A DNA stretch of 64,000 nt, taken from the NCBI GenBank assembly GCA_001661245.1, contig KV454016.1:1-64000 (forward strand). The letters are read 5' to 3'. The notes beneath the pieces are model-generated. The model ran no database searches and was not told the origin of the DNA. It saw nothing but the letters and a program-made list of their open reading frames with translations. The position numbers were made by a program, and so were the translations under genes. Each line of letters starts with the position of its first letter. Positions within the stretch are counted from its first letter, which is position 1. Below, in pieces: positions 4,137 through 29,796 of this stretch. Origin of the DNA: Pachysolen tannophilus NRRL Y-2460 (taxonomy: Eukaryota).

Positions 4137-4721
4137 TTTTAGATGAACTTATATTGTTTTTCTCAATAGCGATTATAAACTTTTAACTGTTATTATTTGA
4201 ATTACACTGAAGTATTCAACGTTCTAAGTTTTCTCTTAAATATCCATTTCCATCTTACATTATTGACGTTGTCTTTTCTAATCTATCTTAATGATAATCT
4301 TGATAGGCCATTAATGTGAAGAGGGGTGGTTATGGATCTCTCAAGGGTGGACTCGCAGGTCTATTGCGTCCACTCAAAGAATTTTTCGGGGCCCTTAGTA
4401 GTACAATTCATTACCCACTTTAAAATTGTTCGAGTCATCGTAAACGATTATCAACATCAGTAGGCAAACCTTCATAATGAACTAAATACGACTAATTTTT
4501 AGAAGAGGATCTTGAGATGATTATCTACGGCCAAATCTATTAATAATTATTAGGTCAAAATTGCAACATTTATTTGTAACAAAAACAAAACTCTACTAGT
4601 TTCTTAAATCTTGGAATAATAAACGGTAACTGAGCCTACTGATAAAAATTATCCATTAAAAATCGCAATATGTAATGAAACAAAAAAGTTGTTAATTATC
4701 GCCAATGAAAGGGCAACATAA

Positions 4722-6245
4722 CTACCTACCTACATACTTAAGTTCAATCCATCTTACCAGAAGATGGCCAATAAAGCTCATTGCCAAGGATATAGGAAAT
4801 GCAACATCTCCAGGATAAACACTGCTTATGTCCTTTGCAATTGGACCTGTCCAGTATGTTTCATTCATTCCAACAGTAGCTCCTCCTACACCACACGCAA
4901 AGGCAAATATAGCAGCATATCCCACAGGAAGCTTAGCCTTATTTTCATATTCATGTGCCTCATACCCTGTCTGACGCTTGTAAATGAAATGCTCAGACAA
5001 AAAAATTCCTAGGTAAATAGCAACAAAATACGAAATAAGACCCATAAAATTTTCCATAAAATCAGAAAATTTGTAAAAACACGGAATGCTAACACCCAAA
5101 GCAATACCATTAGCCAGAAGTGTCCACAAAAGTCTAGGAACTAGTTTGAATTTTGGCCATACTGCTTGAGCGGAAAGCGACGAAGAATAAGAGCATGCAA
5201 CATTAGCGGAAGTTAATGATAATGCTAAAAGAACAACACAAAATCCTCCAAAGCCATGCAACGACTTATGGACTAATATTGCAAACGTCAACCCAGCTGC
5301 ACTTTGAGTCTCGTAGTAATAAGCATAATCCGTATTGTTATACATACATACTGCTGCTGCTACTCCAATAATTTGAGTAAAAACAAGTGAGAATATCGTT
5401 CCACTAGTAACATACCAAAATATTTTATGTTTAGAACTTGTCTTTTTCATATACACTGAATAGTCACATCCATAAAGAGTCCAACCAGCAGCATTTCCGA
5501 ATATATCCGCACCGTACGTTAAAACCATTCCTGCTTCAGCTCTCCCAGTAGCCATGGTACCGGTGGAAAAAGATCCTGACATCGTGATTCTAGCGATAAG
5601 AACAAATGATATGATGAAAACAGGAACCCAACTGTACAGTTCAAACTTATGAATAAAATCGTAACCGAGTAAAGATATAACAGTGCTGCAAGCCGACATT
5701 ATAAGAATGGCAGCCCAAGGAGGAAGAGCACCATTACCCAATGTATGAAGGAGTCCTGCACCGGCGACATTGTTGAGAATTTCCCAACCTATACAAATAA
5801 CAGCATTAATTGAGGCAAAAATTTTGACTCCCTGATATCCTACCCAATACCTAGACAACACCATTTGTCTTAAGCCAAATTCTGGACCAAAAGTTGACAT
5901 AAGTCCAACCGGTAAAACACCAATAGCGTTGAAAAATATGATAACAAGGACCGAATCCCAAAACAGTAAACCAAAAGTTGCAGGTCCACTCATTCCTATA
6001 CTAAAGCCTAAATAGATCATGTTTATAGATGAAAATACAAAAGCAATACTATGTTCCTTCTGATCCGTCCTCTGATGCTCTTCTATTCTCTGTACACCAG
6101 TTTCTTCTGCCCCCGATTGGTAGAGAACTTTTTCAACAACAGATTGTTTTCTTTTCTTAATGGAGGATTCTGAATACTCCTCAACATCACCATTGGTGAG
6201 CGAGGCTACACTCTGCAATACCACTTGTTTTTCAATATCAGTCAT
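4722..6245 (-). CDS. NCS1 purine-cytosine/vitamin permease (FCY2/TPN1 family)
   Basis: About 12 TM segments; GPEFGLRQMVLSRYW and LPVGYAAIFAF motifs; first ATG at 6245. Confidence 0.9.
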   Translation of the reverse strand: MTDIEKQVVLQSVASLTNGDVEEYSESSIKKRKQSVVEKVLYQSGAEETGVQRIEEHQRTDQKEHSIAFVFSSINMIYLGFSIGMSGPATFGLLFWDSVLVIIFFNAIGVLPVGLMSTFGPEFGLRQMVLSRYWVGYQGVKIFASINAVICIGWEILNNVAGAGLLHTLGNGALPPWAAILIMSACSTVISLLGYDFIHKFELYSWVPVFIISFVLIARITMSGSFSTGTMATGRAEAGMVLTYGADIFGNAAGWTLYGCDYSVYMKKTSSKHKIFWYVTSGTIFSLVFTQIIGVAAAVCMYNNTDYAYYYETQSAAGLTFAILVHKSLHGFGGFCVVLLALSLTSANVACSYSSSLSAQAVWPKFKLVPRLLWTLLANGIALGVSIPCFYKFSDFMENFMGLISYFVAIYLGIFLSEHFIYKRQTGYEAHEYENKAKLPVGYAAIFAFACGVGGATVGMNETYWTGPIAKDISSVYPGDVAFPISLAMSFIGHLLVRWIELKYVGR

Positions 6246-6886
6246 ACTATCTTTCAACTCTACCAAAAAGTATATATAGAATAATACACTATATTCTTTT
6301 ATTTAAAAAATACCGATCAACAGCGTAGATAGAACTCTTATATTGTTTTTGTTTGTAATAATATCTCATCAAATATTGTTTGATTGCATTGGAGATAAGC
6401 TCTACATCTTCAGACATATTGAAATAAAACTGTATACAATAACCAGCTAAAAAGCACGTTGAGATTCTTATCGTAATGCAGAATCTTTCGTCCCCACGTA
6501 TTGAACGTTTGCAGGCATAATCTAATCTTCAGTGGACATATTCCCACTTTAGTTTCTATGTTTTCGTCCATGCATCCATTTTTCTCAATCAATGCGTTTA
6601 GTATTTGATAGAAGTCTCTATACTGTCTCTGTCCGTTTTTACTTATTGGTCTTATGAATGTCAGTGGACTGCGTGATATCTGACTAATTGTTTACGCTAG
6701 ATCTTAAAGTAATATACTCTCCAAAAAAAGCACATTATATACTACAACTTTTCAGCTACCCATAGAACGGTTAAACAATTAATTTCCTTCGTTTACTTCC
6801 GACTACATACTTTTTGAATAATGGAATCTACTAAATTTAACTAATTATATTCACCTGTATATCAGGTTTCTAAATTACTATAGATA

Positions 6887-7867
6887 TTACTTATCGAAAT
6901 AATTCATTTCAAGTCCTTTAACACCAGGCTCATACTTGAACAAGTGTCCTCCCCAATCGGTTTTTTGCTTACTCAGTGCATCAAAGGCACTAGTAATGTA
7001 GAGAATATCATTATTCAGACCTCCCCAAGTAAGGGAAGAAATGTATTTGGTATTAAATCTAATAGTTTTCTGTAATTTTCCGTTGGAATTAAATATCATT
7101 ATTGAACCTATATTCCACATAGCAACCCATATATTACCTTCTATATCGATGGTCATTCCATCTGGTTGGCCGCCATCTTTGGTTGTATCAGCAAAAATTC
7201 GTTTCTTAGCTATTGTTGAATTTTTAAGATCAAAGTCATAAGCATATATTGCATGACGTCCCGAATCATTTAAATACATAGTATTATTATCTGGACTCCA
7301 AGCTATGCCATTACCACAAATCAATCCATCATCCATCATTTTCAACGTTCCATCGGGCAGATATCTCCATAATCTCCCAAGAGGCTTTCCGTAGCCATCT
7401 GGTAAATTTTCTCCATACGAATAAGCTTTTCTGTCAATCTCTGCGATCCAAAAATTACCATTGCAGTCAATACCTCCGTCATTAAGCCTTCTGATCCTCT
7501 TATCTTCTTTTGGTATGATCTCTCTTAATATTTGTAACTTCCCTGTACCTTCATCCAAAAACGCAATGCCTTGATAATACAGACATAATAATGAACCAGG
7601 TACATTCTTTCGAAAGCGCAGAACCGTGACACTGTCTTCTAGATTAACCACCCGATGTTTGATTACATGTTCTTCATTATTCTCAGTTGGATCTAAATTC
7701 AAAATATGCAATTGTGGAGGATCACTGGAAATATCAAAGTAATATAAACTGTTGTTTGTTTTTCTATAAATTGGACCTTCTCCCAATACACAAGGTTTAT
7801 CCAATACGTAAAACGGCTCCTTGATTTCCATTTCTTGAGCTTCAAAAGGAGTTCTCTGGTTATCCAT
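6887..7867 (-). CDS. SMP-30/gluconolactonase/regucalcin-family lactonase
   Basis: LGEGP, RLNDGGID, GNGIAWSPD, PDGMTID beta-propeller motifs; ATG at 7867. Confidence 0.9.
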   Translation of the reverse strand: MDNQRTPFEAQEMEIKEPFYVLDKPCVLGEGPIYRKTNNSLYYFDISSDPPQLHILNLDPTENNEEHVIKHRVVNLEDSVTVLRFRKNVPGSLLCLYYQGIAFLDEGTGKLQILREIIPKEDKRIRRLNDGGIDCNGNFWIAEIDRKAYSYGENLPDGYGKPLGRLWRYLPDGTLKMMDDGLICGNGIAWSPDNNTMYLNDSGRHAIYAYDFDLKNSTIAKKRIFADTTKDGGQPDGMTIDIEGNIWVAMWNIGSIMIFNSNGKLQKTIRFNTKYISSLTWGGLNNDILYITSAFDALSKQKTDWGGHLFKYEPGVKGLEMNYFDK

Positions 7868-8896
7868 TGTTAACTTTACTTCCAAATCAAACAACACCTT
7901 ACTTTTTGGCAATTGAGTGGAACTTAATAACCATATCAAGTGGTTCTTATAATTAATATTTTCTTGAGTGATAGCATTAAGTTGTTAGCTTTTTATCCAC
8001 AACGTGGGGGAAGTGGAAACATTAGAGTATGCACTTTAGCTGTAGCCCTGTATGGAAGTAAGAAAATTGTATTAAAACCAATTTTGTTTAGAAAGAAACA
8101 AGAGTTCTTACAGTCAGCTCTTCCCATAAACTAAACTTACAACTTCATAGTTTCATCAAGGAAATTGCGGTCGCCGTTACGTTATCTATATTATGGCCTT
8201 TATCAGTACAATAACTTATATCATTTGCCAAGATTATCTATGATTATAAGTGGACAATATAGAAAGATTAACTCCATGTTTTAGAGGCTACAATCATTGC
8301 ACACTGACCACATTAACTGTTGTTTCTTTAAAAAAAAATCTCAATAAAATCTCATACACCAATTAAGATTTAAATTTAATGATAGTTACACCCCCTTTCA
8401 TTTCCCCTACCACATACACAATCGATACACATAGGTTCTCTTTTTTATTATAGCGGTGGTAATATTATAACTGTCAGAAAATACAACTTTCTATTGATAT
8501 CTGTTTCTTGTGACAAAAATTTTGAGACTGTACATTTTTTTTTAATCCACTGACTCTGATATGCTTAATAAATCATAGTAGATTAGGGATACAAGGGGAA
8601 AAATAAAATAGGATTTCAAAGATTTTTACTTAAAGAATATGGTTTTATATGACGAGATAAAATGAAACCAAATATTTTATATTTAGATATCTGAGGACAG
8701 TTATATCAAGTATCTTGAAAAATTTCAATTAAAAAAAACGAGAATTCTAGTCTGTATAGATGGATATTTTTATATTTATTCGATTCAACATTTATTATTT
8801 TTTGATTAAAAATTGATAGTAATTCTGAATATTCTAATAGGTAGAGTAATCATGATTCTTTTGAATCATTCTATAGTTTTCTATAAAAACGGATGA

Positions 8897-9782
8897 TTAC
8901 CATTTGGTGACACCCGCATCTACAATTATGTCTTCACCGCTCATATAGGAACTGGCATCACTTGCGAGAAACACGCAGGTACCCAGCATATCTTCAGGGT
9001 TTGCAACCTTCTTGTTCATACATACATCTTTCCATTCTTCAATTAATTCAGGAAATCCAGCAGTCATTTCTGTTCTCACGTATCCTGGACTTAAAGAATT
9101 AGCTCTTATACCGTACTTTTGTAATTCTGCCGAAATTGGAGCGACCATGGATCTCACAGCTCCTTTAGTACCACAATAGGCAGAACTTCTTTGAGATCTA
9201 ATTGCAATATAGCTCCCCATACTACAAATAAAAACTATACTTCCCTTCTTGGTTCCATTTTTAATCATTTGCTTTGCAGCTAACTGAGCTGTAAAATAAG
9301 AACCTCTAAAATTTACATTGCATAGACGATTGAATTTATCATAAGAAGTTTCCAAAAATTCGATATTTTCGTTAATGCCAGCACAGGGAACACAAATATC
9401 GATCTTTCCTTCAAAATCTTGAACAAATTTTTGAAATGCGGTTTCCAAACTTTGTTGATCCGACACATCAACACTTTAAATTATTAGAATTTTTCTTATA
9501 TTCATTCAAAACATAAGAAAGTACTTACATATAATTTCTCACCTTAACACTGTATTTAGCTTCAAGTTCTTTTGTGTCTTTGATTGGAACTAATAAATCG
9601 AAAATTCCAACATCGCAACCTGATTCCATAAGGGCTTCAGCGCATGCAAAACCGATGCCTCTTCCTCCTCCTGAAACTAGAGCTGTTCTTCCAGAAATAT
9701 CAAACTATTCTATGTTAGTAAAGTATTCATGCAAACCCGTTATAAAAATTGAGAAAAAGTTACTTACTTTATTAAATACCAT
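8897..9782 (-). CDS. Short-chain dehydrogenase/reductase (polyol/sorbose reductase-like); 3 exons 9782-9768, 9704-9529, 9473-8897
   Basis: Splicing two GTAAGT..AG introns (63 and 55 nt) gives MVFNKFDISGRTALVSGGGRGIG...; catalytic YCGTK; NSLSPGY. Confidence 0.9.
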
Positions 9783-10429
9783 TTAATATTAGTGCTGTCT
9801 TTAATTAAGTATAATATAATTATCGATTGCCAAAACATATCATGTTCTTCCCATTTATATAAGCTGAATCTTGAAGTAGTTTTACGTGGACAAGGAAATA
9901 TTATATCTGTTGATCGGGAAGAGAGACCTTGATTGTAAATAAGAAATCACTCTGATAGGCCGAATATAAAAAGTTCATACGCAGTACAAATCATGTTAAT
10001 GCATAGTTTCATGCAGAAGATTCATAGAGACCAACATTTTCAATTGTTACCAGATAGTAGTTGATGATAATATTTGAGGCGAAAAGGAATATTCTTCTTA
10101 ATTAAAATTACGATGATAAATCAAAACTTTTTATTCCTCATTGGAAAGACAAGTTGAATACTCTGAAGACAAGAAGCTAGTGAAGATTACGAGGCTTTAT
10201 AGATGATATATATAGACGTGTCTTATGTTCGCATGGACTCAAACCGTTCTGTCGACCATTCTGAAATGCATTTACTTAGGTGGGGACCTGCTTTCTTTTT
10301 TTGAGTGCCCACATATGATAAGATTTTTCGTTCCCTTTTACTTGACTATAAAAACCGGCCAAGTTGTATCGATAATGGGAACGATGGTACTTTGATCTAA
10401 AGATAATTTTTAGTCTTGACTAAAAAAAG

Positions 10430-11710
10430 ATGAAAATTATTATTGTTGGCGCTGGTTTGGGTGGTTTAAGTGCTGGAATTGCTTTAAAACAAGCGGGTCA
10501 CGATGTAATTGTTTTAGAAGCGGCACATGAGATTGCTGAAGTCGGTGCGGGAATTCAAATTTTGCCAAATGCCAGTAAAATATTGACTGAGTTTGGATTG
10601 AGGCCTATATTGGAAAAATTTGCAGGTTCTCCCAAAATGTGTTATATCAATGGTTGGAAAGGTAACACCATTACGGGCCTTGATTTTGAAAAACAAGGGG
10701 AAGTAATGGGATCGCCTTTCTGGGATTTCCACAGAGCAGACTTACATGGTGGTATGCTTCAGAAGTTTAAAGAATTGGGCGGTGAGACAATTGTTAATTG
10801 CAGAATTGATGATATTTTGTATGATGAATCCAAATTAGAAGCCACTGCTATTTCTTCTACAGGTGAAAGGTACATTGCAGACTTAATTGTTGGTGCAGAT
10901 GGTGTAAATTCCAAATTGAGAGAACTTTTAGTTGGACATAGTGATCCACCAACGAGAACCGGTGACTTAGCTTTTAGAATATTAATAAAAACTGAAGATG
11001 CAATGAAGTACCCGGAACTAGCTGACTTTGTCAACAATCCTCAAGTTAATTACTGGATTGGTCCTCAATGTCATTGTGTCAACTACGTTATCAAGCAGAA
11101 ACAATTTATCAACTTTGTTCTTCTTTGTCCAGATACAGTTCCTGAAGGAATGAATATTTCACCTGCCAGTGTCGAAGAAATAAAGAACATTTTCAAGGAT
11201 TGGGACGAAAGACTTCTTAAGATGATGGACCTCGTTGATAACAAAACAATCTACAAATGGAGATTGTGTTTCAGACCTGGAATTGAAAGTTGGTATCATG
11301 AAAATGGAATGTTTTGTTTATTGGGAGATTCTGTCCATGCCACATTGCCATATTTGGCATCTGGTGCAGGTATGTGTATTGAAGATGGATGTGTCTTGGG
11401 TCATTTGTTGAAAATGTATCCCGATAAGCGTGATCTTAAAACTGCTCTTAAAATTTACCAAGCTTGCAGGAAAGATAGAACTGAAAGAATTGTATCTAGA
11501 GGAAACTTACAGCAATATCTATACCACTTGGACGATGGTGAGGAGCAAGAAGAAAGAGACAGAATTCTAAGACTTCCTGATCCTCCTGCTGGAGAAGCAT
11601 TTGTTTGGAGAGATAAAGAATTGGCCCCTTGGCTTTTGAAATACGATGCTATGAAAGATATTCAAGATAAAATATTCGCACTTAAATCCGGTTCGGCCTT
11701 GCATGTATAG
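10430..11710 (+). CDS. FAD-dependent aromatic monooxygenase (salicylate hydroxylase-like, group A)
   Basis: GAGLGG, VGADG and LLGDSVHATLPYLASGA fingerprints. Confidence 0.93.
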   Translation: MKIIIVGAGLGGLSAGIALKQAGHDVIVLEAAHEIAEVGAGIQILPNASKILTEFGLRPILEKFAGSPKMCYINGWKGNTITGLDFEKQGEVMGSPFWDFHRADLHGGMLQKFKELGGETIVNCRIDDILYDESKLEATAISSTGERYIADLIVGADGVNSKLRELLVGHSDPPTRTGDLAFRILIKTEDAMKYPELADFVNNPQVNYWIGPQCHCVNYVIKQKQFINFVLLCPDTVPEGMNISPASVEEIKNIFKDWDERLLKMMDLVDNKTIYKWRLCFRPGIESWYHENGMFCLLGDSVHATLPYLASGAGMCIEDGCVLGHLLKMYPDKRDLKTALKIYQACRKDRTERIVSRGNLQQYLYHLDDGEEQEERDRILRLPDPPAGEAFVWRDKELAPWLLKYDAMKDIQDKIFALKSGSALHV

Positions 11711-12153
11711 CCTAAAAGTAAATAATATTTTTTGTTTGATTTTTTTCTTTAGAAATATATAATACTAAAATATCTACTATTATCAGAACATAATATTCTT
11801 CTATCTTGTCCCGAATGCCGACATCAGATCAAGTATCATCTTTACCGGTATACCAATGGCAGTATGGTTTTTAGCGATACAAGATTACCGATTGCTTTTA
11901 CTATATCATACCACTTTGAAGTTATGGAATTTAAATCACCTTGATATGGGTAGTATTGATTGAAATCTGTCCGCAGGATGAATACGTCCACGCATTGATG
12001 GATTTTCTTACATGGGGACGTTACGTTAAGTTTATCTTAAACTTCATCCAGTACTTGCAGAGCCGATAAAGAAACAACTATAAAGATGTTATGTTTTGTT
12101 CCTAAAAAAAAAGAAACCTGAAGCTTCTACTATCATGTTGAAGTTGTAAGAAA

Positions 12154-13985
12154 ATGACTACTTTAGATACTGATGTTTTAGTTGTTGGAGCTGGACCAGC
12201 TGGTTTGATGCTTGCGTATGTTACTTTAATCTTACAGGAATTTTTTCAATTAATTAATACTAATACCAGTGCAGATCTCTTCTTGCTCGTTTAGGAGTCA
12301 AAGTCATGATAGTTGATGATAGAGCAACAAAAACCTGTACAGGTAGAGCAGACGGTGTACAGCCGAAAACAATGGAAACATTTAAACAAATGGGTCTCCT
12401 GCATGAACTTAGTGGTAAAGGTGTTCGTGTATACGATATAACAATGTGGGAGTATTCAGATGAGAAAAAGGCATACAAGAGGGTGTCCTGTGAGCCTCAT
12501 TTCTCCGACGTTGTGGATTTAAGGGATCCTTATATTCTTCTTTTGCACCAAGGTATGATTGAAGATGCTTTCATCAGAGATATGTCTTCCAGAGGAGTAT
12601 CTGTTAAAAGAAACTCACTGTTCCAGAGTTACGAGATAAAAGGTGATTTTGTTCATTCTCGAATAAAACAAGGCGACACTGATATTGTTGTTAAATCAAA
12701 GTATGTAGTCGGCAGTGATGGTGCCCATTCTGCTGTACGTAAATGTATGCCAGAAGTCGAAATGGTAGGAGCTTCTACAGAGAGCGTGTGGGGTGTTATC
12801 GACGGAGAATTGGAAACTACATACCCTGATTTTTGGAGTAAGACTGTGATTTCATCAAAATCAGAAGGGACAGTTTTAGGTATCCCAAGAGAGAGAAATA
12901 TGACAAGACTTTATATCGAATTAGAAAAAAAATTGGACAACACTTCAGAAAAAGAAGTTGAAGAATTTATTAAGGATAAAGCTAGAAAAATCATGAAACC
13001 TTTTACTATTGAGTGGAATACAGTGGAATGGGTAGGATTATACACAGTTGGCCAGCGTGTTGCAAGTAAATTTATTGACGGAAAGAGAGTTTTCATAACT
13101 GGTGATGCTTCTCATTCTCATTCCCCGAAAGCAGCTCAAGGTATGAATGTATCAATGCATGATTCTTGGAATCTTGGTTGGAAGTTAGCATATTATATTA
13201 AAGGCTATTCAACAGAAGAAGTTTTGTTATCCTATGAAGTCGAACGAAGAAAAATTGCTCAAGACTTGATCGATTTTGACAAGGAACATGCTAATGCATT
13301 CAAAAATGTTGATCCAGAAGTTTTAAAAGCCAATTTTGAACGGAACATTCGTTTTATTTGTGGAGTTGGTGCAGATTATAATCTTAATATATTAAATCAG
13401 AAGTCAAATGTACAATCTTCTTTGAAACCTGGCGAATTGCCAATACCAGCCAATGCCGTGAGATTTATTGATTCCAACCCGGTGGAATTGGAAAATGCAA
13501 TTCCTGCTTTGGGACAATTCAAGGTATTTATTTTTGCTGAAACTTTTGCTGCTTCTGAAGAGTTCTTGAAATCATTTAGTGATGAGGTTCAAGATAACTC
13601 TGTCTTGCAAAAATTTTTTGATGAGCATCCTTTAGATCTAAATTCTTTCAAATTAGAAGCAGATAAAATATCTCATAAAAGATATACTCCGGTTTCCGAA
13701 GTGTTAACTATGTCACTTGTTTTTGACACTAAGAGGTTTGAATTTGAGTTAGAGCAGCTCCCAGCATTGTTCCGTCCATATAAATGGTCGATATATTTGG
13801 AACCACCAATGGATGGACCTTTCAAAAAGTGGCTCCCAAAGACATTGCTGAAGAAAATTTCAATAGTCGTAGTAAGACCAGACGGTTATGTTGGAGCTCT
13901 TGAATCATTTGATATCAAAAAATCGCAGGCCAAAAAAGCTAGCGTATGGTTGAACAATTATTTTGAAAAAATTTTGGTCATCTAA
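12154..13985 (+). CDS. Phenol 2-monooxygenase-family flavoprotein; intron 12216-12274
   Basis: Exon 1 MTTLDTDVLVVGAGPAGLMLA joined via GTATGT..TACTAAT..CAG; GRADG, GDASHSHSPKAAQGMN, C-terminal VVRPDGYVG. Confidence 0.93.
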
Positions 13986-14275
13986 GTTAATAGCTACGCT
14001 AACTTAGCTTTTGAAAAATCATAATAGACACATAAAATAATAGAAATGTTATACAGACAAAAAAATAATAATATTTATAATATTTAGTATAGTTTTTTGT
14101 GGAAATGGTAACTTCAATAATGCTACTATTGGTTCTAATATAAAAAATTTACTCTTTTTCCTGAATGCAAGGTTACTTTAAAGTTTTGTATTTATACTCT
14201 CCTATAAATTTAAGATATATATATATATATATATTGTACCACGTATATGAGAACCAATTTCTGAAATAAGTTGAC

Positions 14276-18994: not shown

Positions 18995-20593
18995 TCATAC
19001 AGTTTCTATGCGTTGTTCACGATACTTCTCATCAAGTTCAAGAGCTCTGTGACCACCCCGAGCCTTCCTTTCAGAAGCTAATGTCTGTGCAAATTTTGAC
19101 TTTTCACGAATTACTTCACCTTTCCAATAAAATACATATATTGGTGTAGTTACTGCAAAAGCCATACAGGCAAGAATTGTTGACGGATATTCCAATGTAT
19201 ATGTCTTGAAATATTCATAAAATGGAGTAGAATAGATAGATGCAAGTCCAGCCAAAAAATCTCTAGCAAGCGCATTTCCTCCTGTAGCGGAAGCGGAATA
19301 AGGACCATAACTAGCAATCATATAATCAATAGTGGCCATATATATTGAATAATTGGCCAGTCCAACTAAAGTCGAAAATATCATGGGAGCAATCCAATGA
19401 ACACGAGGTGGTCCTAAACTTGTCCAGGAAAATCCAAACAAGCCTATTGTTTCCAAAGGTGCCATGAACAATAGCCACCAAAGCCGTTCTTCTGGGACAA
19501 AAGCATCGGGGTCTCTATGAATTAGCTTCTGTTGCGAATATATAACAGGAATAAAACTGAGATAAGCAAGAAGATAGCCAATAATCAAAGGTATCAACGC
19601 AAGACTAGTGTCAATGACGGTAAAATTCCATTGGGCATAAACCAAAGTATATGAATCAAGAAATGTAAAAATAAGCGCATCACTAAAACCACTCAAGAGA
19701 GAGAGACAAAGAACAATTGGTTCCCGAGCAAACATTATAAAAGGACGAGTCCAGATTGCAAATATTTCTTTTGTGTTAAGAGATTTATTAGATAACTCTC
19801 CTGGACCATAAACATTTTCTTCTCCTGCTTTCCGCCTTCTCTTGGCTTCACGTTTAAGCATGATGGTTGATCGTGTTTCTGGAACAACAAAAAAATGTAT
19901 AGCTTGAACTGCTCCACCAAAGATGAGTTGAATCCAAAAATTCCAATGCCAAGACAAAAATGTCTCAATAAAACCACCAACTAACCCTCCAACAACTGAC
20001 CCACCAACAGATGAAAGAACAACATAAGCAGTCGCATATTGTTGATCATTTGGTTCCCACATATCAGCTACCATCCCCAAAGTTACAGAACCTCCTGCAG
20101 ATGAAAGTCCTCCTAATGCACGACATACAACAAGTGTTCCATAATTAGGAGCTAAAGCACAAGGAATTTGCCAGATATTAACTAGAAAAAGACTCATTTG
20201 TAAAATAATCCAACGTCCATACTCTTCACTCCAAGGTGCCCAAAGTTCACTACCAAATGCATATAACACAAGAAATGTTAATTCAGGAACACGCGCGGCT
20301 TGTTCAGAAACATTAAAATGTTCGCTTAACTGAGTAACTGCATTCGCATATACACTTGTGTTAAAATTCATAGATACCTGAACAATAAATATCACTGAAA
20401 GTATGGTCCATTTTTTTATTGTTGAAAAGCTATAACCAAGAGCTTCATAATTGTCGGTTTCTTGAATCTCATATTTTCCATCTTCGCGAGCTTGTTCAGG
20501 AATATTGGAATTATTCGAAGCAGAACTCTTCTCTCCATCATTATCTGAGGTAGAGTTTGGATTTACTCTATAAATAAGTCTACTTTGATCCAT
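18995..20593 (-). CDS. MFS drug:H+ antiporter (DHA1-like)
   Basis: 12-TM pattern; WAPWSEEYGR, PETR, PEERL, YSASATGGN motifs. Confidence 0.92.
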   Translation of the reverse strand: MDQSRLIYRVNPNSTSDNDGEKSSASNNSNIPEQAREDGKYEIQETDNYEALGYSFSTIKKWTILSVIFIVQVSMNFNTSVYANAVTQLSEHFNVSEQAARVPELTFLVLYAFGSELWAPWSEEYGRWIILQMSLFLVNIWQIPCALAPNYGTLVVCRALGGLSSAGGSVTLGMVADMWEPNDQQYATAYVVLSSVGGSVVGGLVGGFIETFLSWHWNFWIQLIFGGAVQAIHFFVVPETRSTIMLKREAKRRRKAGEENVYGPGELSNKSLNTKEIFAIWTRPFIMFAREPIVLCLSLLSGFSDALIFTFLDSYTLVYAQWNFTVIDTSLALIPLIIGYLLAYLSFIPVIYSQQKLIHRDPDAFVPEERLWWLLFMAPLETIGLFGFSWTSLGPPRVHWIAPMIFSTLVGLANYSIYMATIDYMIASYGPYSASATGGNALARDFLAGLASIYSTPFYEYFKTYTLEYPSTILACMAFAVTTPIYVFYWKGEVIREKSKFAQTLASERKARGGHRALELDEKYREQRIETV

Positions 20594-21703
20594 AATGTTG
20601 TATATCTATAAAGATTCTTTTAACTGAGCCCGTTAAATTTCGTATCTGGTATTACATTATTAGGAAAGTTTTCCATACTTATATTCTTATAAAGATATTT
20701 ACATAAAAAGAGATGAATAGATAGTAATAAGATAGCAATGATTAAATAAAGTGATTATATAATTTTACTCAATTGATCATAATTTTAAATAGAGATGGAA
20801 ACTATAATTTTTTGGTATTTCTGTATAGTTTCTTCATTGCTTGCTGTAGCTAGGCGTAGTTTAAGGTGCTTGCGGATGTAAACCTCAAATTTTGGTGCGC
20901 ATCTTACAATTTTTCCGAATGGAGAAAGTCTATTTTATTTGTAAATGTGAGATCATAGCACATATACATCATAGTTGATGCAATTTCTATGTAATCGAGA
21001 TGTTAATTAAAACGTATCAACTCCACAAGAAAACAAGGGAATCTACTTAATATGTATGGTTCTATTATGAATCCATGCACAAGGATGGTTTATAAAATTA
21101 AACTATATGAAAAAAATCACACTTATTTGCAAGTAACAGTCGTACTAGGATAAATGTTCCTACTGTAGATGGACCTCTTTACGTTGACGTTATTCAAAAC
21201 TGAAAACGTTCAAACAATCTTAAAACTATTTCTAACAGAAATTTGCAAATAAAAATCTTTCATTGCTAATTTACAGAAAAAAAAAAAAAAACATCATACT
21301 TTAAGTATTTTAAAGTGGAAAACATGACTAAGTCAAAACTGAGAATCAATATTCAACTTCAAGAATACACTTATTTGGAAGAAGAACAAATTGTAGATAC
21401 TTCACATAACATAACATCTTTCAAGATTTTTTGAAATTTGTATATATCCAAACCTATCTAACAATTGCTGGCTTTACGTTTGAAAAATAGGGGTATTATT
21501 GATTAATACCAGAAGGTAAACTACTGCAAGATTATGTATAATCTGCGGCTTTCTTTTAAGTGGGGAGGTGTCCACACTGATTGTCCACAGTAAAAATGGA
21601 ATGGCTTTTTCTGCGAGACCTATTTATATATATATATATATATATATACTGGAGTTTTTCTTAAAATTGTTTTCAAACCTCTGTTTTGCCGTATACTAAA
21701 CAA

Positions 21704-22903
21704 ATGGCCACTCATATGAATGATACATCAACTATGTTTGAATCTTTTAAACTTGGTTCTTCAACGCTTTCCCATAGGGTAGCTTTGGCACCCTGCACCA
21801 GAATGAGGGCTGAAAAAGCTGGTGATTTTTACGTTCCAGGTGATTTAATGGTTGAATACTATACTCAAAGGGCAACAGCTGGTGGGCTTTTAATTACCGA
21901 TGCTTGTCCAATTTCTGAAACAGCTTGCGGCTATTTGGGAGTTGCTGGAATTTTCAATTCAGAACAAGTTAGCGGGTGGAAAAGAGTCACTGATGCTGTT
22001 CACAGTAAAGGAGGTATTATTTATTGTCAATTGTGGCATGTGGGTAGAGCTACTGTTGCTCAACTTATAAAAGGAACTCAACCAATTTCTTCTGTGTCTA
22101 CTGCTTTGGAAGGTGATTCTTTATTTCCAGGAGTCTCATATAGAGATGCTCCACCAAGAGCTATGATTAAGGATGATTTCATTGAAGTGACAAATGATTT
22201 TGTAAAAGCTGCAAAAGTTGCTATTGAAAAGGCTGGTTTTGATGGTGTAGAGATTCATGGTGCAAATGGTTATCTTCTTGATCAATTTCTCCATGATAAT
22301 GTCAACACTAGAACTGACACGTATGGAGGTAAATCAATAAAAAACCGTGCAAGATTTCCTTTGGAAGTTCTTAAATCAGTTTGTACCGAAATTGGTGCCG
22401 AAAAGACAGCTATTCGCCTTTCACCTTTTAACTACTTTCAGGATACAAGAGACTCAGATCCAAATGCTACTTGGTCTTATGTTTGTCAAGAAATTGTTAA
22501 TTTAGATGAGCCAATTGCTTATGTTCATATGATTGAGCCTAGATTTGATGAAAAGCTAAATGCTGAAGATAAAATCAAATCTTTAGAAGAGCAGGTAGGT
22601 AAAGCCGAAGGTTTTTCATTGAATGGATTTAGGTCCATTTTAAAAAATAAAAATATTTCATTTATTGCAGCTGGTGGGTTTTCAAAAGAAACTGCTTTGA
22701 AAAAACTAGAAGCTGGTGATGCGGATGTAATTGCTTTTGGTAGACACTTTATTGCAAATCCAGATCTTGTCGAGAGATTTAAACTGGATCTCCCATTGAA
22801 CAAGTATGATAGACCAAGTTTTTATGGCTCAGATCCTCCTAAAAATGGTTATACTACTTATCCAACTTATGCAAATTCACAATTAAACGGTAAAGCTCAT
22901 TAA
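21704..22903 (+). CDS. Old yellow enzyme (NADH:flavin oxidoreductase/ene-reductase)
   Basis: APCTRMRA, YYTQRA, QLWHVGR, EIHGANGYLLDQF, FGRHFIANPDL. Confidence 0.93.
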   Translation: MATHMNDTSTMFESFKLGSSTLSHRVALAPCTRMRAEKAGDFYVPGDLMVEYYTQRATAGGLLITDACPISETACGYLGVAGIFNSEQVSGWKRVTDAVHSKGGIIYCQLWHVGRATVAQLIKGTQPISSVSTALEGDSLFPGVSYRDAPPRAMIKDDFIEVTNDFVKAAKVAIEKAGFDGVEIHGANGYLLDQFLHDNVNTRTDTYGGKSIKNRARFPLEVLKSVCTEIGAEKTAIRLSPFNYFQDTRDSDPNATWSYVCQEIVNLDEPIAYVHMIEPRFDEKLNAEDKIKSLEEQVGKAEGFSLNGFRSILKNKNISFIAAGGFSKETALKKLEAGDADVIAFGRHFIANPDLVERFKLDLPLNKYDRPSFYGSDPPKNGYTTYPTYANSQLNGKAH

Positions 22904-23811
22904 TTTACATGATAACGCGCAGTTCTAGAAAATATACAAAATATCTTAATAGAAATCAAAGAAAAATTATATATATGTATATATATATATAACCGATAAA
23001 TTTGAAACTTCAATTTAGAAATTACCCCTACTTTACCTTTTACTTGTAGTTTTATTATATAATTATATTAAATTTTGAACTAAAAAATTTAGATGTAAGA
23101 GTTCTTTGCTTAAAAGTGGATTGTAAGATGTTCTAATGGTTAAACATTTTTTTCTAACTCCTGTATTCTATAGTAATTATAATATATATTATTACCTCTG
23201 GAAATCAAAGTACAATGGATTTATGATCTCTTAATCTCATCAGTCTAGCGTGGACACATTTATGCAACTAACTAAAAAAGGAATATGAATTCTGAAATCA
23301 CTCTAGGGTCTTTAATCCCGAGATCTCTGAAAACGAAAATACTTTCATAACATCTATACAGTAATAACATAAGTTTGCCAAAATCGTAGCCGAGAATATT
23401 TAAAAAACTATATAGAATTATTTACAAATCTCTAATGATTTTTTGTAGAAGACCCTTTTTATATCATAATATAAATACAGTCCAGGTTTGTTTCTTACCT
23501 AACTTTCTTTCTGTTTCCATCGAAGTTAACACTTCACTGTAGGAAATTTCTCTAGTGGAATGCCTATTCTGAAATGCTAAGGTAAAAATAGCTGACATTC
23601 TGATCTTTTGAGAGGTGCCTTAGGTGTCTTACCCACCGTCCACCATCAATGAGTATGGACAAATGTTATCGGCCAAAGAAATATGTATGCACATATTACG
23701 TAATCCGAAAAATGTAAAGAAAGAATTCTTATAAATGATAAGAAACCAGCTACAGTTCTGTTTTCATTGTGATAAGAATAAATTCAATTATTGTAGTTTA
23801 TAGTTGTGGTT

Positions 23812-24964
23812 ATGGGGAAGAAAAGTAAGGGGACTTTATTTGATTTAAAAAATTTGAGTTGGGGATTCCATAATACTAATTGAGTCATATAGGAGTTTTG
23901 TGTTGTTATGGTGTCGATATTGATGCTGTGTCAGGTTGGCTAGGTTCTTATGGTGGTGCAGATTCAGTCAACGATATTTCAAGAGGTATGTATATTTTCT
24001 TTTGCGTAGAAGAGAGTAATGGAATTTTTTTTTATACTGACATAATGTTCAAAGGTTTATTTGCTGGCCATGTTGGTGTTCCAAGAATGTTAAAAATGTT
24101 TGATAAGTACCAGATCAAGGCTACTTGGTTTGTCCCCGGTCATTCTTTAGAAACATTCCCCGAAGAATGTGCTGTTATTAGAGATAAGGGACATGAATTG
24201 TAAGTATTTGTGAATATGTGACAATTCTAAGAGTTTGATACTAACTAATCAATTTGAATTTTTTTGAAAGTGGTCTCCATGGATATTCGCATGAGAATCC
24301 AGCTGATATGACTCTTGAACAACAGAGAGATGTTTTAGATAAGACTTTTAGACTTATCACAGAGTTTTGTGGTAAACCACCCAAAGGTTCTGTTGCACCG
24401 TGGTGGGAAACATCAGTTGAAGGTACCGAAATGCTTCTAAGTTACGGTATCGAATATGATCATTCAATGTCTCACCACGATTGCAAAGCATACTGGTTAA
24501 GAACAGGTGATTCTTGGAAAAAAATTGATTATTCCAAGAGGGCAAAAGAGTGGATGGAACCTTTGATTAGAGGAAAAGAAATTGGCCTTGTAGAAATTCC
24601 TGGTAACTGGTATATAGATGATCTTCCACCTATGATGTTCATCAAAAATAATCCAGATTCTTATGGATGGGCAAATCCAAGAGATATTGAAGATATTTGG
24701 AGAGATCATTTTGATTATTTCTATAGGGAATATGATGAATTCATTTTCCCGATAACTTGTCATCCTGATGTTTCTGGTAGACCTCATGTTCTTTTAATGC
24801 ATGAAAGACTTATTGAACATATTAATAAACACGAAGGTGTTGAATGGGTTACCATGGGTGAGCTTTCAGATGATTTCAAAAAGAAAAATCCTCCTCCCCC
24901 TGGTGCATTAATGCCAACTTCAACCGAAGAAGTATTGAAAAGATTGAACATTAATTTGTCATAA
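23812..24964 (+). CDS. CE4 polysaccharide-deacetylase-fold hydrolase (PuuE/HpPgdA-like); introns 23825-23892, 23986-24054, 24200-24270
   Basis: Spliced [23 protein letters not shown]...ATWFVPGH...[10 protein letters not shown]...APWWE...[12 protein letters not shown] introns with branch sites; no signal peptide. Confidence 0.9.
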
Positions 24965-25238
24965 ATATATAGTTATTGGTGTATGTTGATAATATTATTC
25001 ACATGCAACTATATGCATGTCCACTTAAAATGTACCTAGAAGTTTGATTGAAATTTACTTAACCTACTTTATTAAACTGCTACTCATTTGTGATGTAAAG
25101 GAAAATAAAAGACTTAATCCTGATGTCATTAAAGAAAACTGTATTTAATTTCTCTATTCACCATTACTATCTTTTCCTAAAAAAAAAAAAATTTTAAAGC
25201 TCAAGTTGCTCATATGCTGTTGATAGGTAAGATAAAGA

Positions 25239-25680
25239 ACTTATGACCAAATTTGATCATTTCATCAAGATTAATATTGAAGAATAGTCTCAAACCTGGA
25301 AATTAGCTTCCATAAAGGAATCTAAAAGTAAATTTTTTTAAAAAAAAAAACGTAGGCCATACTGTATCTATCTATTAGAATCATAAGTATAGTTTGTATT
25401 CCCCATTAGATTTCGGTGTATTACTTACTATCTACAGGCTTCCAAAAAAAAAAAAAAGACAAAAAAAAAAGCAGAGTACCAGCTCGATGCTCTCGCCAAC
25501 TACAGATCCAGCTCTACAAGACCCAGTTGCATCGGAACACAAGTTTCTAAACTACTCTCATAATTAGATGAAGATCGGGAAAGCTTACCTATGAACAACG
25601 AAGTTGGTTAAGCCGAAGATATGCGCGCAACGCTTGTGCTTTTCTTGCAAATGATCCTGGTAGTTAATTACATGAACAAC
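25239..25680 (+). pseudogene. Decayed SDR pseudogene fragment, paralogous to the SDR at 8897-9782
   Basis: Broken frames read YDKFDHFIKIN..T.KLA, GHTVSIY, PSCIGTQ, MNNEVG*AEDM, ACAFLANDPGS.YM, colinear with YDKFNRLCNVN..TAQLA, GSIVFIC, PGYVRTE, MNKKVANPEDM, TCVFLASDASSYM of the intact SDR. Confidence 0.6.
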
Positions 25681-25951
25681 GATAAAATCACTTTACTCAT
25701 ACTGATATGACCAAATAACATGTGAAACAATTTCTTTATGAGTTCGAGTCAATGCTCTACCATGATTATTAATATCTTGATATCTTAAATATTTGTATGC
25801 TCGTTAATAAGCAATGTAAAGTTTTCTTTGGATGCAACGGCGATTGCCCACCTAAAAAAAAAAAATTTCCCCACGCGAAATGTGGTATAACTGGCCGAGA
25901 AGTCCACTTCTTTGATAGTACGGTATTGATTAAATTGTAATTGTAATCAAG

Positions 25952-28725
25952 ATGAGTACCAAGACGAAGAAGAGGTTTCCTTGTCAATTCAGTAAGTGTG
26001 GGAAGTCCTTTTTGAGAAAGGACCACCTTGAAAGGCATGAATTAAACCATAGAAAAGAAAGATTAAAGTGTCCCAGATGTGAAGCTCAGTTTTCAAGAGC
26101 TGATTTGATAGGTAAGCGGTGTATATTGATTTTATTTTATGGTATTTGGTTATTAACTTCATTATGATAGATCGTCATCTTAAGCGTCATCTGGAGAAAG
26201 ATGCGGAAGCTGGTGGTGAAGGGTTGGGTAAATTAATTAGTAGAAGAAAACTTTGGCGGCCTGAGGCTGGATACATCAAGGCCTCAGATAGAAAGATGAT
26301 AATACCATCTGATGATATTCCAGACAATACAGATAACTCATCAACGTCTTCTTCAGAAAATGAGAAATTTTTTACAAAAAGAAGGGAATATACTCTTTCT
26401 AGTGAATATTCAAGGACCGCTGATAAAGATGATCCAAATTTAGAGTTAGCTTCTCTTAACAATGATAAATCATTAGCTTTAGATGATTTGGGCCGACCAA
26501 CAGATTCTCTTTTATATAGCACTGGTTCGTCGGAAGCGAAAACCGTAAATCTTGAATCTGGTGATCAATTACCAAATGGAAATGACTTATCTGAAAACCA
26601 GTCTGAACAGAATTCTAGTGTGTCAGATAGATATTCGAGCTCTAATATGTTTTATCAGAATGACCAGGCAAATATAGTTCATTCTAGTTCTGACTCACAC
26701 AGCATTTCTGAAGATATTATCTTGGAAAGCTTTGTTCCAGATACAGCTTCTTCCTTCACTATGCCGTTTACAACTCTCAAGGATTACTCTTGGATATTTG
26801 AAAATCCAGATGAATTTTTTTCTCCTAAATCTACAAACAATTACATATCACCAGTGAATATTGAAACAGCAAATTACTTCAATAATACACATGATACATC
26901 ACCACTGAGTAATAAGAACTTGACAAAGCAAGCAACCCCACAGAAAACTGATAATGACGGTGTGAAAAATGTATCATCATTACGTCGGGAAGCAAGTGAT
27001 GTGTATTCTAATTACGAATCACTGACAGATATAAATCCTCATCTTCAAGATTCATATGTTATTGAGTTTACAGAAAATCCAGTACCATTTTTGCCAAAAT
27101 TGGATGAAACTACCAGGTTGAGGACGATTGATTTTATTGTCAAAATTACTTCTACAGGAATATCATATTCTTCTTTTGATAAAAATGATGAATTCTTTGA
27201 AATGAAATCTATGCAGAAATTCTTGAATATGTTTTTCATCAAAGTGAATGTTGCATATCCATTAATCCACTGTTCCAGCTTTAATCCTAATGAAGTAGAT
27301 AGTTTGTTGCTTGTATCATTGATCCTTCTAGGTGCAAGCTATGACACCAAGGCTTCCCACAAGGCTGCTGTTAAAATTCATGATTGCCTAAGAGGTGTTC
27401 TTTTCAGTTCCAGTTATTTTAATGCAACCCCAGATTTGTGGGTTTTACAAGCAATTCTTCTAATAGAAATTTTTGGGAAAAATAAAGCAGATATTAAACA
27501 ATATGAAATGGCATGTTTATTCCATGGTCTATTGATCAATTTAATCAGAAGAAGCGGATGTGAGAATGCCGTAAATCCACCTCACTCAAAAGAAGACGAA
27601 TTTGACCCAGAAGAAAGTTGGAAAACTTGGATTAAATCAGAATCAATGAAAAGATTGGCTTTATTGACATTTTTATTAGATGTTCAGCATGCTACACTTT
27701 TCAGTCAAACTCTATGTATGTCCGCATTTGAATTACGCCTGCAATTGCCTTCAGATCTGAAGTTATGGAATGCTAAAGATGCAGAAGAATGGCTAGAGTA
27801 TAGAAGGTCTGAAAAGCAACCATTATATTTTTTAATAACTTTGAAAAAATATATAAACTGTTCAGATAGTTTACCACACCTTAACCCCTTATCTAGAGTA
27901 TTAATACTCCATGGGTTAATGGGTATATCATGGGATATGCAGCGCCGAGATCAAACATCATTGGGCCTTCATATAGATCCTTATGCTTGGAAAACAAAAA
28001 TGGCAAAAGCTTACGACTGCTGGAAAGATGATTTTGATAAATTTAGCACCATTGCTATATCTGAATGTGCCAATTCAGGTAACTCATTGAGTCAAAGATA
28101 TTTAATAAAGTATTTAACAACCAATAATGCAATTTACCATAGTGCTCATATTATTTTATGGACAAATATCATTGACTTGCAAATTTTCGCTGGTGCTGAG
28201 CATATTTTGGGAAGACCTGTCAATACATCAACCTTTGATTTTGCAAAAAAATCAGTCATCTCCTGGAGCAGAAGTATGGGGAAATCAGAGAAAGCAGTTA
28301 TGCATGCGGCTCAATTATTAAGAGAAGGTCTAACAAATTTAGACGACTGGGAAGTAGATGGAACATTTCATTATCCCTGGTGTTTATATTTAGCTTCGTT
28401 GACATGTTGGGCATTCTTCAAAACCGTTAACCCAAATAAGCCGTCTTTTATCAAAGATAATAAAGCCAATAACTGTCCTCCAGACTTGAATGAATCAATT
28501 GATACACTCGATGACTACAAATATAAAATGAGGAATTTTTTACTATTAGTAACTAGCGAAACACCAAATAGATATCGTGATCTTGCGACTCATCCACATT
28601 GTGACACAACAGGAATGCTCAATGAAATAGCAGATTACTTTCGTTCGATTAGATGGGAAATTATATACGAAAGCTTGAAAGTTTTGAAAAACATTATTGG
28701 TACAAAAGGCGTAGAATATATATAG
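25952..28725 (+). CDS. C2H2 zinc-finger transcription factor with fungal TF middle-homology domain; intron 26112-26170
   Basis: Two C2H2 fingers (CQFSKC..RKDHLERHELNH; CPRC..RADLI|DRHLKRH) joined by a GTAAGC..TAG intron; YPLIH and WIKSESMKR MHR motifs. Confidence 0.92.
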
Positions 28726-28851
28726 CAGTATTAAATTAAATAGTTTTTAAGAAATTTCACTTTCTCGAATAATAATATATGAAGGACTATTTATAATTCA
28801 GTTTTAAATCTTGTTATCTAAGTAAATCATTCAATATAATTTCATCAGGCC

Positions 28852-29511
28852 ATGTCATCGAGCAATTCAGTATCAGATAAAGCGCTTTTGAAGAATTCAA
28901 GCCTATTACAATCGGCAACAACTCATAAGTTAACTACAGAATTATCTAAAGGCACTTTAAAGGACAAGATTTTACTAGTTTATTTGGTGCAGGATTATAA
29001 ATTTTCAGGAATGTTTCTCAAGATGATAGGTAAGGCTTTATCATTATGTGATAATTATCAGTCAGCAATAACTTTAGGGAAGCAACTTGGGCTTATCTGC
29101 AACGATGAAAATGATTATTTTGAATCAACTATAGAGCAACTTTCTAAATCGATTAAAGTGAACGATGATGTATTGCCCACCGTGAAAAAATACCTTGATT
29201 ACATGCTAAAATTATCGAAAAGTGAATCATATTCAGAAATTATCTCTTCATTATATATTATGGAATTGGTTTATTTGAAGTGGGCTGAAGATGCTGAGAA
29301 TCATAATAATACTCTTGAATTACTTGAATATAAACATAAGGAGTGGATTGATTTACATAGAGGAAAAGCTTTTGAAATATGGGTTGAATTCTTAAAGAAA
29401 GAAGTAGATAGACATCCAGAAGAATCTGATAAAATCTTTGAATCTGTTCGAATTACTTTAAATTTTGAACTTGAGTTCTTTGATGAAACTTACCAAGTTG
29501 GTTCAACATAA
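28852..29511 (+). CDS. PET18: TenA/THI-4 family protein (Pet18/TenA_E-like)
   Basis: H.LT.EL..GTL, YLVQD, ENDYF, ELVYLKW, EWIDLH, LELEFFD. Confidence 0.8.
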   Translation: MSSSNSVSDKALLKNSSLLQSATTHKLTTELSKGTLKDKILLVYLVQDYKFSGMFLKMIGKALSLCDNYQSAITLGKQLGLICNDENDYFESTIEQLSKSIKVNDDVLPTVKKYLDYMLKLSKSESYSEIISSLYIMELVYLKWAEDAENHNNTLELLEYKHKEWIDLHRGKAFEIWVEFLKKEVDRHPEESDKIFESVRITLNFELEFFDETYQVGST

Positions 29512-29796
29512 TTAGATAATTTAATTCACTCATTGCATTCAAAGTTTATGGTCCACATAATGATAGAAGTAGTCTTAACACTTAGAATGAACAATAAACT
29601 TACCAATGACTTGACAAAACTTTTTGTTTTTATATGAAATAATGCTTACTATTTTCTGTTATCTATATAAATATATATTTAAATATATATAACTTATATT
29701 GTATCACAAAAAAAAAAAAAATAATAATTCTATAAATACTATATCAATAGATACTTTTCTTTTTTGTATGCAATTGTATAACATATATATATCTAT

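Follow-up and report, generated by a model that had tools for sequence, protein, structure and literature searches.

The first 64,000 nucleotides of contig KV454016.1 from the yeast Pachysolen tannophilus NRRL Y-2460 (assembly GCA_001661245.1; forward strand), hereafter the window, contain a catabolic cluster of 16 genes, including a regulator gene, that spans 929..31047. The hexamer GTGGAC, or GTCCAC when read on the other strand, recurs in the promoters of this cluster, which raises the question of whether so short a word is a genuine regulatory element and, if so, which protein might read it. The excess of GTGGAC in the cluster promoters is real and far beyond chance. We further infer from the sequence, and consider it somewhat probable, that GTGGAC, along with the variant GTGGGG, is the putative operator at which the C2H2 zinc-finger protein encoded in the cluster, a candidate counterpart of HxnR from Aspergillus nidulans, would bind and activate transcription. 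Positions of all genes and sites are collected in Table 1.

The word occurs 22 times in the window, a number reached by none of 100 dinucleotide shuffles (mean 9.44, maximum 18). Six of these copies are inside open reading frames (ORFs), at 1125, 5122, 5984, 16798, 53086 and 61466, and the 16 others are noncoding, every one of them within 4347-29556. For the cluster we used the 9123 bp of noncoding DNA in 4137-29796, after gene models had been refined with short added exons. Here the 16 observed copies compare with 0.98 expected under an order-1 Markov model and 0.89 under an order-2 model, and dinucleotide shuffling of the same segments yielded a mean of 0.97 copies (standard deviation 0.96, maximum 5) without reaching 16 in any of 2000 trials. 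An order-3 model gives an expectation of 4.49, although it was trained on the same DNA with the sites included. In contrast, the 11849 bp of noncoding DNA in the window outside the cluster contain no copy against 1.0 expected, and none is found in the promoters of 20 housekeeping ORFs between 34 and 64 kb. These counts agree closely with what the initial annotation had recorded by eye: the 16 positions it gave are all exact copies of GTCCAC or GTGGAC outside ORFs, its rough figure of about one chance copy matches the shuffle mean, and the intergenic DNA from 32 to 64 kb, in which it saw no copies, proves to be free of them.

Because GTCCAC had been chosen by eye and therefore post hoc, we also scanned all hexamers without prior choice, comparing the cluster with the other intergenic DNA of the window. 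GTCCAC ranked first among 688 words (16 versus 0, Fisher p = 4.4e-6, or about 0.003 once corrected for 688 tests). Degenerate hexamers were scanned as well. Once T-runs and TATATA, which are over-represented in both compartments, had been removed, the 40 best patterns were without exception derivatives of GTCCAC. The pattern at the top of that list, GTSSAC, owes its rank only to being self-complementary, so that each site is counted twice. The signal is confined to the hexamer itself: 7- and 8-mers gained nothing over GTCCAC, and no position within 10 bp on either side of the 16 sites is conserved (maximum 0.34 bit).

One might still argue that this excess is non-functional and reflects chance, base composition, a dispersed repeat or a duplicated promoter. 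The selection of the word by eye and the slightly higher GC content of the cluster noncoding DNA (0.296 versus 0.254 elsewhere in the window) would favour such a view. However, models that take composition into account expect about one copy in the cluster and outside alike, the unbiased scan places the word first even after correction, and the sequences around the sites are unrelated. Moreover, every site lies outside the longer repeats shown (the 20 largest direct families and the 25 longest inverted pairs), and no one-mismatch neighbour of GTGGAC is clearly enriched apart from GGGGAC (five copies in the cluster versus two elsewhere, two of them within GTGGGGAC) and GTGGGG. We therefore regard a non-functional origin as largely refuted and assign it almost no weight.

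Three other words also favour the cluster noncoding DNA, namely ATACAG (14 versus 0), ACTGTA (11 versus 0) and ATACTG (12 versus 1), and sometimes overlap as ACTGTAT. They were considered as a second motif and rejected as not significant after multiple testing; they are AT-rich, about 6 copies are roughly expected from base composition, and an exon of the short-chain dehydrogenase/reductase (SDR) gene accounts for one copy.

The placement of the GTGGAC sites is that of promoter elements. At least one copy is present in 10 of the 14 intergenic intervals of 4137-29796, in keeping with the annotated presence in most intergenic regions, and in 9 of the 11 intervals that bear a promoter. Twelve of the 16 cluster genes from P450 to OYE-2, including the regulator gene, have the word in their 5' intergenic DNA, the exceptions being P450, SnoaL_4, TENA and OYE-2. 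Fifteen of the 16 sites are located 5' of a start codon at distances of 44-990 bp, and 12 of them within 50-420 bp, with the start codons of the SDR, hxnV-like and hxnM-like genes taken at 9782, 12154 and 23812. On the plus strand nine sites read GTCCAC and seven GTGGAC, and such freedom of orientation relative to the gene points to an element that acts at the level of DNA rather than RNA. Three divergent promoters have sites that are common to both genes. The inverted pairs (4347/4368 and 17652/17687) and the direct pair (21570/21583) that had been described are all present, at spacings of 15, 29 and 7 bp, respectively; this absence of a fixed geometry points to the independent binding of monomers. 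As had also been noted, the promoter of the regulator gene itself has a site, at 25902, which is 50 bp upstream of the ATG at 25952.

Alternatively, the word could work at the level of DNA or chromatin, for instance as a boundary or silencer by which the cluster is set apart as a chromatin domain, and not in gene-specific activation. The sites extend from 4.3 to 29.6 kb and end where the housekeeping genes begin, and two of them (25019 and 29551) are just past stop codons. However, the distances of 50-420 bp to start codons seen for 12 of the 16 copies are typical of an upstream activating sequence (UAS), the word resembles the site predicted for the cluster's own regulator, and we know of no 6-bp boundary element of this kind. 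We consider this explanation very unlikely.

GTGGAC is accompanied by a second word. Noncoding DNA of 2549-31817 contains eight copies of GTGGGG versus one elsewhere in the window (six versus 0.48 expected within 4137-29796). Each of the eight is upstream of a cluster gene, and the genes served include P450 and SnoaL_4, whose promoters are without GTGGAC. GTGGGG probably represents a less frequently used version of the GTGGAC operator, which would then read GTGG[A/G][C/G] overall; the pooled pattern GTGGRS occurs 27 times in noncoding DNA of the cluster versus twice elsewhere. The sequence GTGGGGAC is found twice (6490-6497 and 10280-10287), both times in cluster promoters, and can be described either as GTGGAC with GG inserted or as GTGGGG overlapping GGGGAC.

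Catabolic clusters are commonly glucose-repressed, and the GTGGGG copies could instead be sites for a Mig1/CreA-type glucose repressor, separate from GTGGAC, that would place the cluster under carbon catabolite repression. GTGGGG does fit SYGGGG, the pattern given for Mig1 in PMC3897899 (Table 2). However, the other forms of this pattern (GCGGGG, CTGGGG and CCGGGG) are absent from noncoding DNA of the window both in and out of the cluster, as is partly expected at low GC, and the wider pattern SYGGRG is only weakly skewed (10 versus 6). Furthermore, this proposal covers the variant only, given that GTGGAC ends in C and all 16 sites fall outside SYGGGG and SYGGRG. On balance, we find glucose repression through GTGGGG rather unlikely.

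If a factor encoded by the cluster reads GTGGAC, there is one candidate, the product of the regulator gene between the hxnM-like and TENA genes, as no other DNA-binding protein was identified in the cluster. The gene has an intron of the canonical yeast type, and its product combines two N-terminal C2H2 fingers (residues 9-33 and about 39-63) with a PF04082 domain at about 405-673 (E = 2.5e-45). PF00096 is matched at residues 9-33, which are encoded in exon 1, and the intron interrupts the coding sequence of the second finger. One C2H2 finger reads about three bases, and thus two fingers would be expected to recognize a bare 6-bp word without conserved flanks. The finger helices are RKDHLERH and RADLIDRH, for which the canonical finger code predicts 5'-GTG-G(G/A)G-3'. 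GTGGAC agrees with the GTGGAG form of this prediction at five of six positions and with the GTGGGG form in its first four bases, and the mismatch to the former is at the last base.

Homologues of the regulator keep these contact residues. Among the best 120 of 208 homologues, 66 have both fingers in their first 200 residues, and in these the common forms of the finger-1 helix retain Arg, Asp/Glu, His and Arg at positions -1, 2, 3 and 6, whereas those of the finger-2 helix retain Arg, Asp, Leu and Arg. An exception among the listed finger-1 helices is RLDRLKRH, with Arg at position 3. The Lys at helix position +1 of finger 1 is shared by this regulator and only one of the 66 homologues (P0005), which is also the most similar of them.

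The same domain architecture is known from A. nidulans HxnR, whose C2H2 fingers are at residues 8-32 and 41-63 and whose PF04082 domain is at 394-668 (Bokor et al. 2021, PMC8478523), nearly identical to the positions in the yeast protein. PMC8478523 notes of the binding sites of HxnR that they 'have not been experimentally determined' and offers a software-only prediction of GHGGGG, relaxed to GNGGDG; likewise, we found no measured HxnR site in the available parts of the hxnR literature. GTGGGG fits the predicted GHGGGG, which is itself enriched (nine copies in the cluster versus two elsewhere), and GTGGAC shares its GTGG. However, GTGGAC as the dominant word differs from the software prediction by two bases and fits neither GHGGGG nor GNGGDG. 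A. nidulans hxnR is also described as inducible and self-regulated (PMC8478523), and the promoter of the yeast regulator gene has both GTGGAC and GTGGGG, with GCCCAC, CCCCAC and GTCCAC in a single orientation within 106 bp of the ATG. The earlier view that the motif could not be assigned to a known transcription factor is accordingly amended: the cluster encodes a regulator of HxnR architecture, the site predicted for HxnR shares GTGG with the motif, and GTGGGG is enriched in the same promoters.

Several observations weigh against this regulator as the reader of GTGGAC. The Arg at -1 and Asp at 2 of finger 1 should presumably select G, and yet GTGGAC ends in C. The published GHGGGG is also G-terminal, so the dominant word differs from that prediction too, and its relaxed form GNGGDG shows no excess (19 copies in cluster noncoding DNA versus 24 elsewhere). 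The TENA and OYE-2 promoters are without a site, and the copy at 29551 is in a spacer between two 3' ends. Furthermore, the control DNA amounts to about 11 kb from this one window, so that the cluster-specificity claimed initially holds within the window (16 versus 0) and is limited to a comparison of that size. Finally, the proposed orthology of the two regulators is drawn from architecture, gene linkage and the statement on yeasts in PMC8478523 rather than from a tree that contains the A. nidulans protein, which is not among the 120 homologues listed out of 208.

These difficulties would be eased if GTGGAC were read by an unlinked transcription factor, for example one responsive to nitrogen, carbon or xenobiotics, while the HxnR-like protein used GTGGGG only. 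The site derived from the finger code has a terminal G where GTGGAC has C, as does the published prediction, GTGGGG is separately enriched, and the two words often stand side by side (6492/6532, 21560/21570 and 25869/25902), as would be expected for two cooperating factors. However, the promoters of the 20 housekeeping ORFs are devoid of GTGGAC, the word shares GTGG with the predicted HxnR site, and no known motif that we checked accounts for it. Specifically, GTGGAC fails to match Mig1 SYGGGG and Adr1 TTGGRG (PMC3897899, Table 2), with TTGGRG occurring four times in cluster noncoding DNA versus five elsewhere, and the AreA/Gln3-type GATAAN shows no excess in the cluster (44 copies for an expectation of 40.9; outside it, 57 for 43.2). 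An unlinked factor thus seems to us on the unlikely side, but deserving of serious attention.

The favoured model is therefore the putative operator of the cluster-encoded regulator. GTGGAC would serve as the main recognition hexamer, or UAS, of the HxnR-type factor. Each monomer of this factor would bind on its own, with one to three copies of the word available per promoter and no constraint on their orientation. In the presence of an inducing metabolite, the catabolic genes would be switched on together, with divergent gene pairs using common sites, and through the sites in its own promoter the regulator would stimulate its own expression, in line with the autoregulation reported for A. nidulans hxnR. 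The initial annotation had proposed the operator of a cluster regulon that might be autoregulatory; enrichment, promoter placement, occurrence in both orientations and the own-promoter site all fit this proposal, whereas binding and regulation keep the status of predictions.

A bolder version of this model would treat GTGGAC as the first data-driven operator of the HxnR family, with a regulon grown past the Aspergillus hxn genes. This might come about in two ways. The real site of the family would be GTGG[A/G][C/G], in which case the published GHGGGG and GNGGDG would have to be revised, or else the yeast lineage could have re-tuned finger 1, with the Lys at +1 changing the preference at the two 3' bases from GG to AC. 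We put this version forward tentatively and rate its chances at roughly one in three. If true, in either form, the PAD1/FDC1 decarboxylase pair, the Fcy2-type permease and the lactonase would have been captured by the regulon, and the locus would represent a wider catabolic super-cluster for pyridine or aromatic acids under one C2H2 switch.

Although the kind of element is ordinary, namely a pathway-specific UAS that is shared within a metabolic gene cluster, the GTGGAC motif appears to be unreported, as our literature search, judged by title, returned no report of GTCCAC/GTGGAC as a fungal operator. A word that is sixteen-fold enriched and two bases off the software prediction provides a concrete and testable candidate for the unmeasured HxnR site. 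The motif also marks neighbours that are probably part of an enlarged regulon, specifically the PAD1/FDC1-like genes, the permease and the lactonase, and the extent of this regulon bears on what yeasts without hxnS degrade with an hxn cluster.

Table 1. Genes and candidate operator sites of the catabolic cluster (positions in the window; distances are to the ATG unless stated otherwise).
Feature	Position	Strand	Remarks
P450	929-2548	-	
hxnY-like DIOX_N/2OG-Fe(II) oxygenase	3078-4136	-	Pfam
Fcy2-type (purine-cytosine-type) permease	4722-6245	-	Pfam
SMP-30 lactonase	6887-7867	-	
SDR, hxnW-like	8897-9782	-	3 exons
FAD monooxygenase, hxnX-like	10430-11710	+	PDB: 4-hydroxybenzoate and vanillate decarboxylative hydroxylases, NicC
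Phenol-hydroxylase type, hxnV-like	12154-13985	+	PDB: phenol hydroxylase/MHBH
SnoaL_4	14276-15004	-	
FDC1-like UbiD	15938-17515	-	E ~1e-150 to A. niger/yeast Fdc1 structures
PAD1-like UbiX	17731-18402	+	
MFS transporter (hxnP-like)	18995-20593	-	
OYE-1, hxnT-like	21704-22903	+	
hxnM-like, polysaccharide-deacetylase fold	23812-24964	+	four inferred exons, first 13 nt
Regulator gene	25952..28725	+	exon 1 25952-26111; intron 26112-26169 (GTAAGC ... TATTAAC ... TAG); exon 2 26170-28725
TENA	28852-29511	+	
OYE-2	29797-31047	-	
GTGGAC	4347..4352	+	211 bp upstream of hxnY-like 2OG-oxygenase; inverted pair with 4368 (GTGGAC-N15-GTCCAC)
GTGGAC	4368..4373	-	232 bp upstream of hxnY-like gene
GTGGAC	6532..6537	+	287 bp upstream of Fcy2-type permease
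GTGGAC	6664..6669	+	419 bp upstream of Fcy2-type permease
GTGGAC	8250..8255	+	383 bp upstream of SMP-30-type lactonase
GTGGAC	9886..9891	+	divergent SDR (hxnW-like)/FAD monooxygenase (hxnX-like) promoter; 104 bp to ATG 9782, 544 bp to ATG 10430
GTGGAC	11986..11991	-	~168 bp upstream of phenol-hydroxylase-type (hxnV-like) gene, ATG 12154
GTGGAC	17652..17657	-	215-bp divergent FDC1-like/PAD1-like promoter
GTGGAC	17687..17692	+	same divergent promoter; inverted pair with 17652
GTGGAC	21570..21575	-	134 bp upstream of OYE-1, 977 bp upstream of MFS transporter
GTGGAC	21583..21588	-	direct pair with 21570
GTGGAC	23250..23255	+	~560 bp upstream of hxnM-like gene, ATG 23812
GTGGAC	23638..23643	-	~170 bp upstream of hxnM-like gene
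GTGGAC	25019..25024	-	55 bp past hxnM-like stop codon, 933 bp upstream of regulator
GTGGAC	25902..25907	-	50 bp upstream of regulator; preceded by GCCCAC (25846) and CCCCAC (25869), same orientation
GTGGAC	29551..29556	-	between TENA and OYE-2 3' ends; sole copy not in a promoter
GTGGGG	2728..2733	-	180 bp upstream of P450; second copy at 2874
GTGGGG	6492..6497	-	permease promoter; from 6490 reads GTGGGGAC
GTGGGG	8004..8009	+	137 bp upstream of lactonase
GTGGGGAC	10280..10287	+	150 bp upstream of hxnX-like gene
GTGGGG	15221..15226	+	217 bp upstream of SnoaL_4 gene
GTGGGG	21560..21565	+	4 bp from GTCCAC at 21570
GTGGGG	25869..25874	-	83 bp upstream of regulator

By its gene content, which Pfam reveals as densely catabolic over the first 31 kb, the cluster is an hxn-type catabolic cluster for nicotinate derivatives. 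The Pfam families of hxnT, V, X, W, M, Y and P are all represented within 26 kb as family-level matches, with the hxnT family present twice (OYE-1 and OYE-2). The structural neighbours in the PDB are consistent with those given in PMC8478523: phenol hydroxylase/MHBH for the hxnV-like protein, NicC as one of the matches of the hxnX-like protein and OYE for the hxnT-like protein. In the described pathway, HxnX is a 6-hydroxynicotinate monooxygenase, HxnV a 2,5-dihydroxypyridine monooxygenase, HxnT an alkene reductase, HxnW a ketoreductase, HxnM a cyclic imidase and HxnY a 2OG dioxygenase (PMC9304392). Support for the hxn assignment also comes from the linkage of the regulator and FAD monooxygenase homologues, whose locus tags are consecutive or close to each other in no fewer than 10 Pezizomycotina (for example LTR36_009836/009837, EG329_007356/007357 and Z518_04244/04236); in two assemblies the two homologues are also on contigs of equal length. 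Beyond 34 kb, all ORFs that Pfam matches are of the housekeeping type.

Some features of individual genes merit comment. The FDC1-like and PAD1-like genes form a divergent pair inside the cluster (15938-18402) whose shared promoter of 215 bp holds two GTGGAC sites. The hxnX-like protein matches the structures 8gsm (named 4-hydroxybenzoate decarboxylase, E = 3e-95) and 8x38 (decarboxylative vanillate 1-hydroxylase, E = 4e-75), and its match to NicC, the bacterial 6-hydroxynicotinate monooxygenase, is much weaker (E = 2e-42). Because the protein is closer to 8gsm and 8x38 than to NicC, its substrate may be a hydroxy-aromatic acid instead of 6-hydroxynicotinate. The last exon of the hxnM-like gene matches the Helicobacter pylori deacetylase-fold structure 3qbu over 209 residues with E = 8e-90, which is strikingly close for a yeast gene; a possible horizontal transfer of hxnM is discussed in PMC8478523. 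As a speculation, the company of a permease, a lactonase and a TENA/THI-4 gene with pyridine-ring enzymes might reflect the catabolism of a vitamin-like pyridine or pyrimidine compound.

Neither tRNA genes nor Rfam families that reach the gathering score were detected in the window. CTG is a rare codon, with 68 occurrences in the 37 ORFs that were examined, and three informative ones, in the genes at 17731-18402 and 6887-7867, stand opposite Met, Phe and Leu in alignments to structures of Pad1 and regucalcin. These few alignments tentatively suggest that CTG is decoded as standard Leu and not as Ser (CUG-Ser) or Ala (CUG-Ala), and translation table 1 was therefore used throughout. A run of 206 N at 52246-52451, just upstream of the ORF at 52647, is likely an assembly gap, and a single N is present at 61519. 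Two minus-strand ORFs (45825-46238 and 46201-47019) overlap and match consecutive parts of a DnaJ-X domain, so that this gene (45825-47019) has either a frameshift, a sequencing error or an unusual intron.

The locus has both similarities to known hxn clusters and differences from them. The conserved divergent arrangement of hxnW and hxnX (PMC13705651) is mirrored by the SDR/FAD monooxygenase pair. According to PMC8478523, hxn clusters occur in 14 scattered Saccharomycotina species, always with hxnR and never with hxnS, and the window correspondingly has no xanthine-dehydrogenase-type (hxnS) gene. Kuraishia capsulata and Candida boidinii are among the yeasts with relatives. In contrast to the regulon of A. 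nidulans, as far as the accessible accounts describe it, the domain covered by GTGGAC adds the PAD1/FDC1-like pair, the Fcy2-type permease and the SMP-30 lactonase, whereas P450 and SnoaL_4 are covered through GTGGGG only. AreA sites are reported for the A. nidulans hxn promoters, whereas GATA words show no enrichment here.

The likeness extends beyond this family. Adr1 of Saccharomyces cerevisiae likewise activates catabolic genes through two C2H2 fingers. It recognizes a 6-bp half-site, with paired sites each occupied by a monomer, and its base-contacting residues presumably follow the same Arg/His/Arg and Arg/Leu/Arg pattern as those of the regulator. Adr1 is a broad regulator that is not encoded in a cluster and is without PF04082. 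Its UAS1 word TTGGAG, one form of TTGGRG (PMC3897899, Table 2), has TGGA in common with GTGGAC, and the two sites differ in their first and last bases. In arrangement, there are parallels to the pathway-specific UAS elements of fungal gene clusters such as GAL, DAL and secondary-metabolite clusters. There, too, most promoters of a co-located pathway contain copies of a short word, divergent genes have it in common, and the regulator gene is preceded by it. However, the regulators of those systems mostly belong to the Zn2Cys6 class and recognize CGG-type repeats, whereas the regulator here is of the C2H2 type. A C2H2 protein is unusual as a pathway-specific regulator (Amon et al., PMC5746545), and HxnR is among the few fungal examples.

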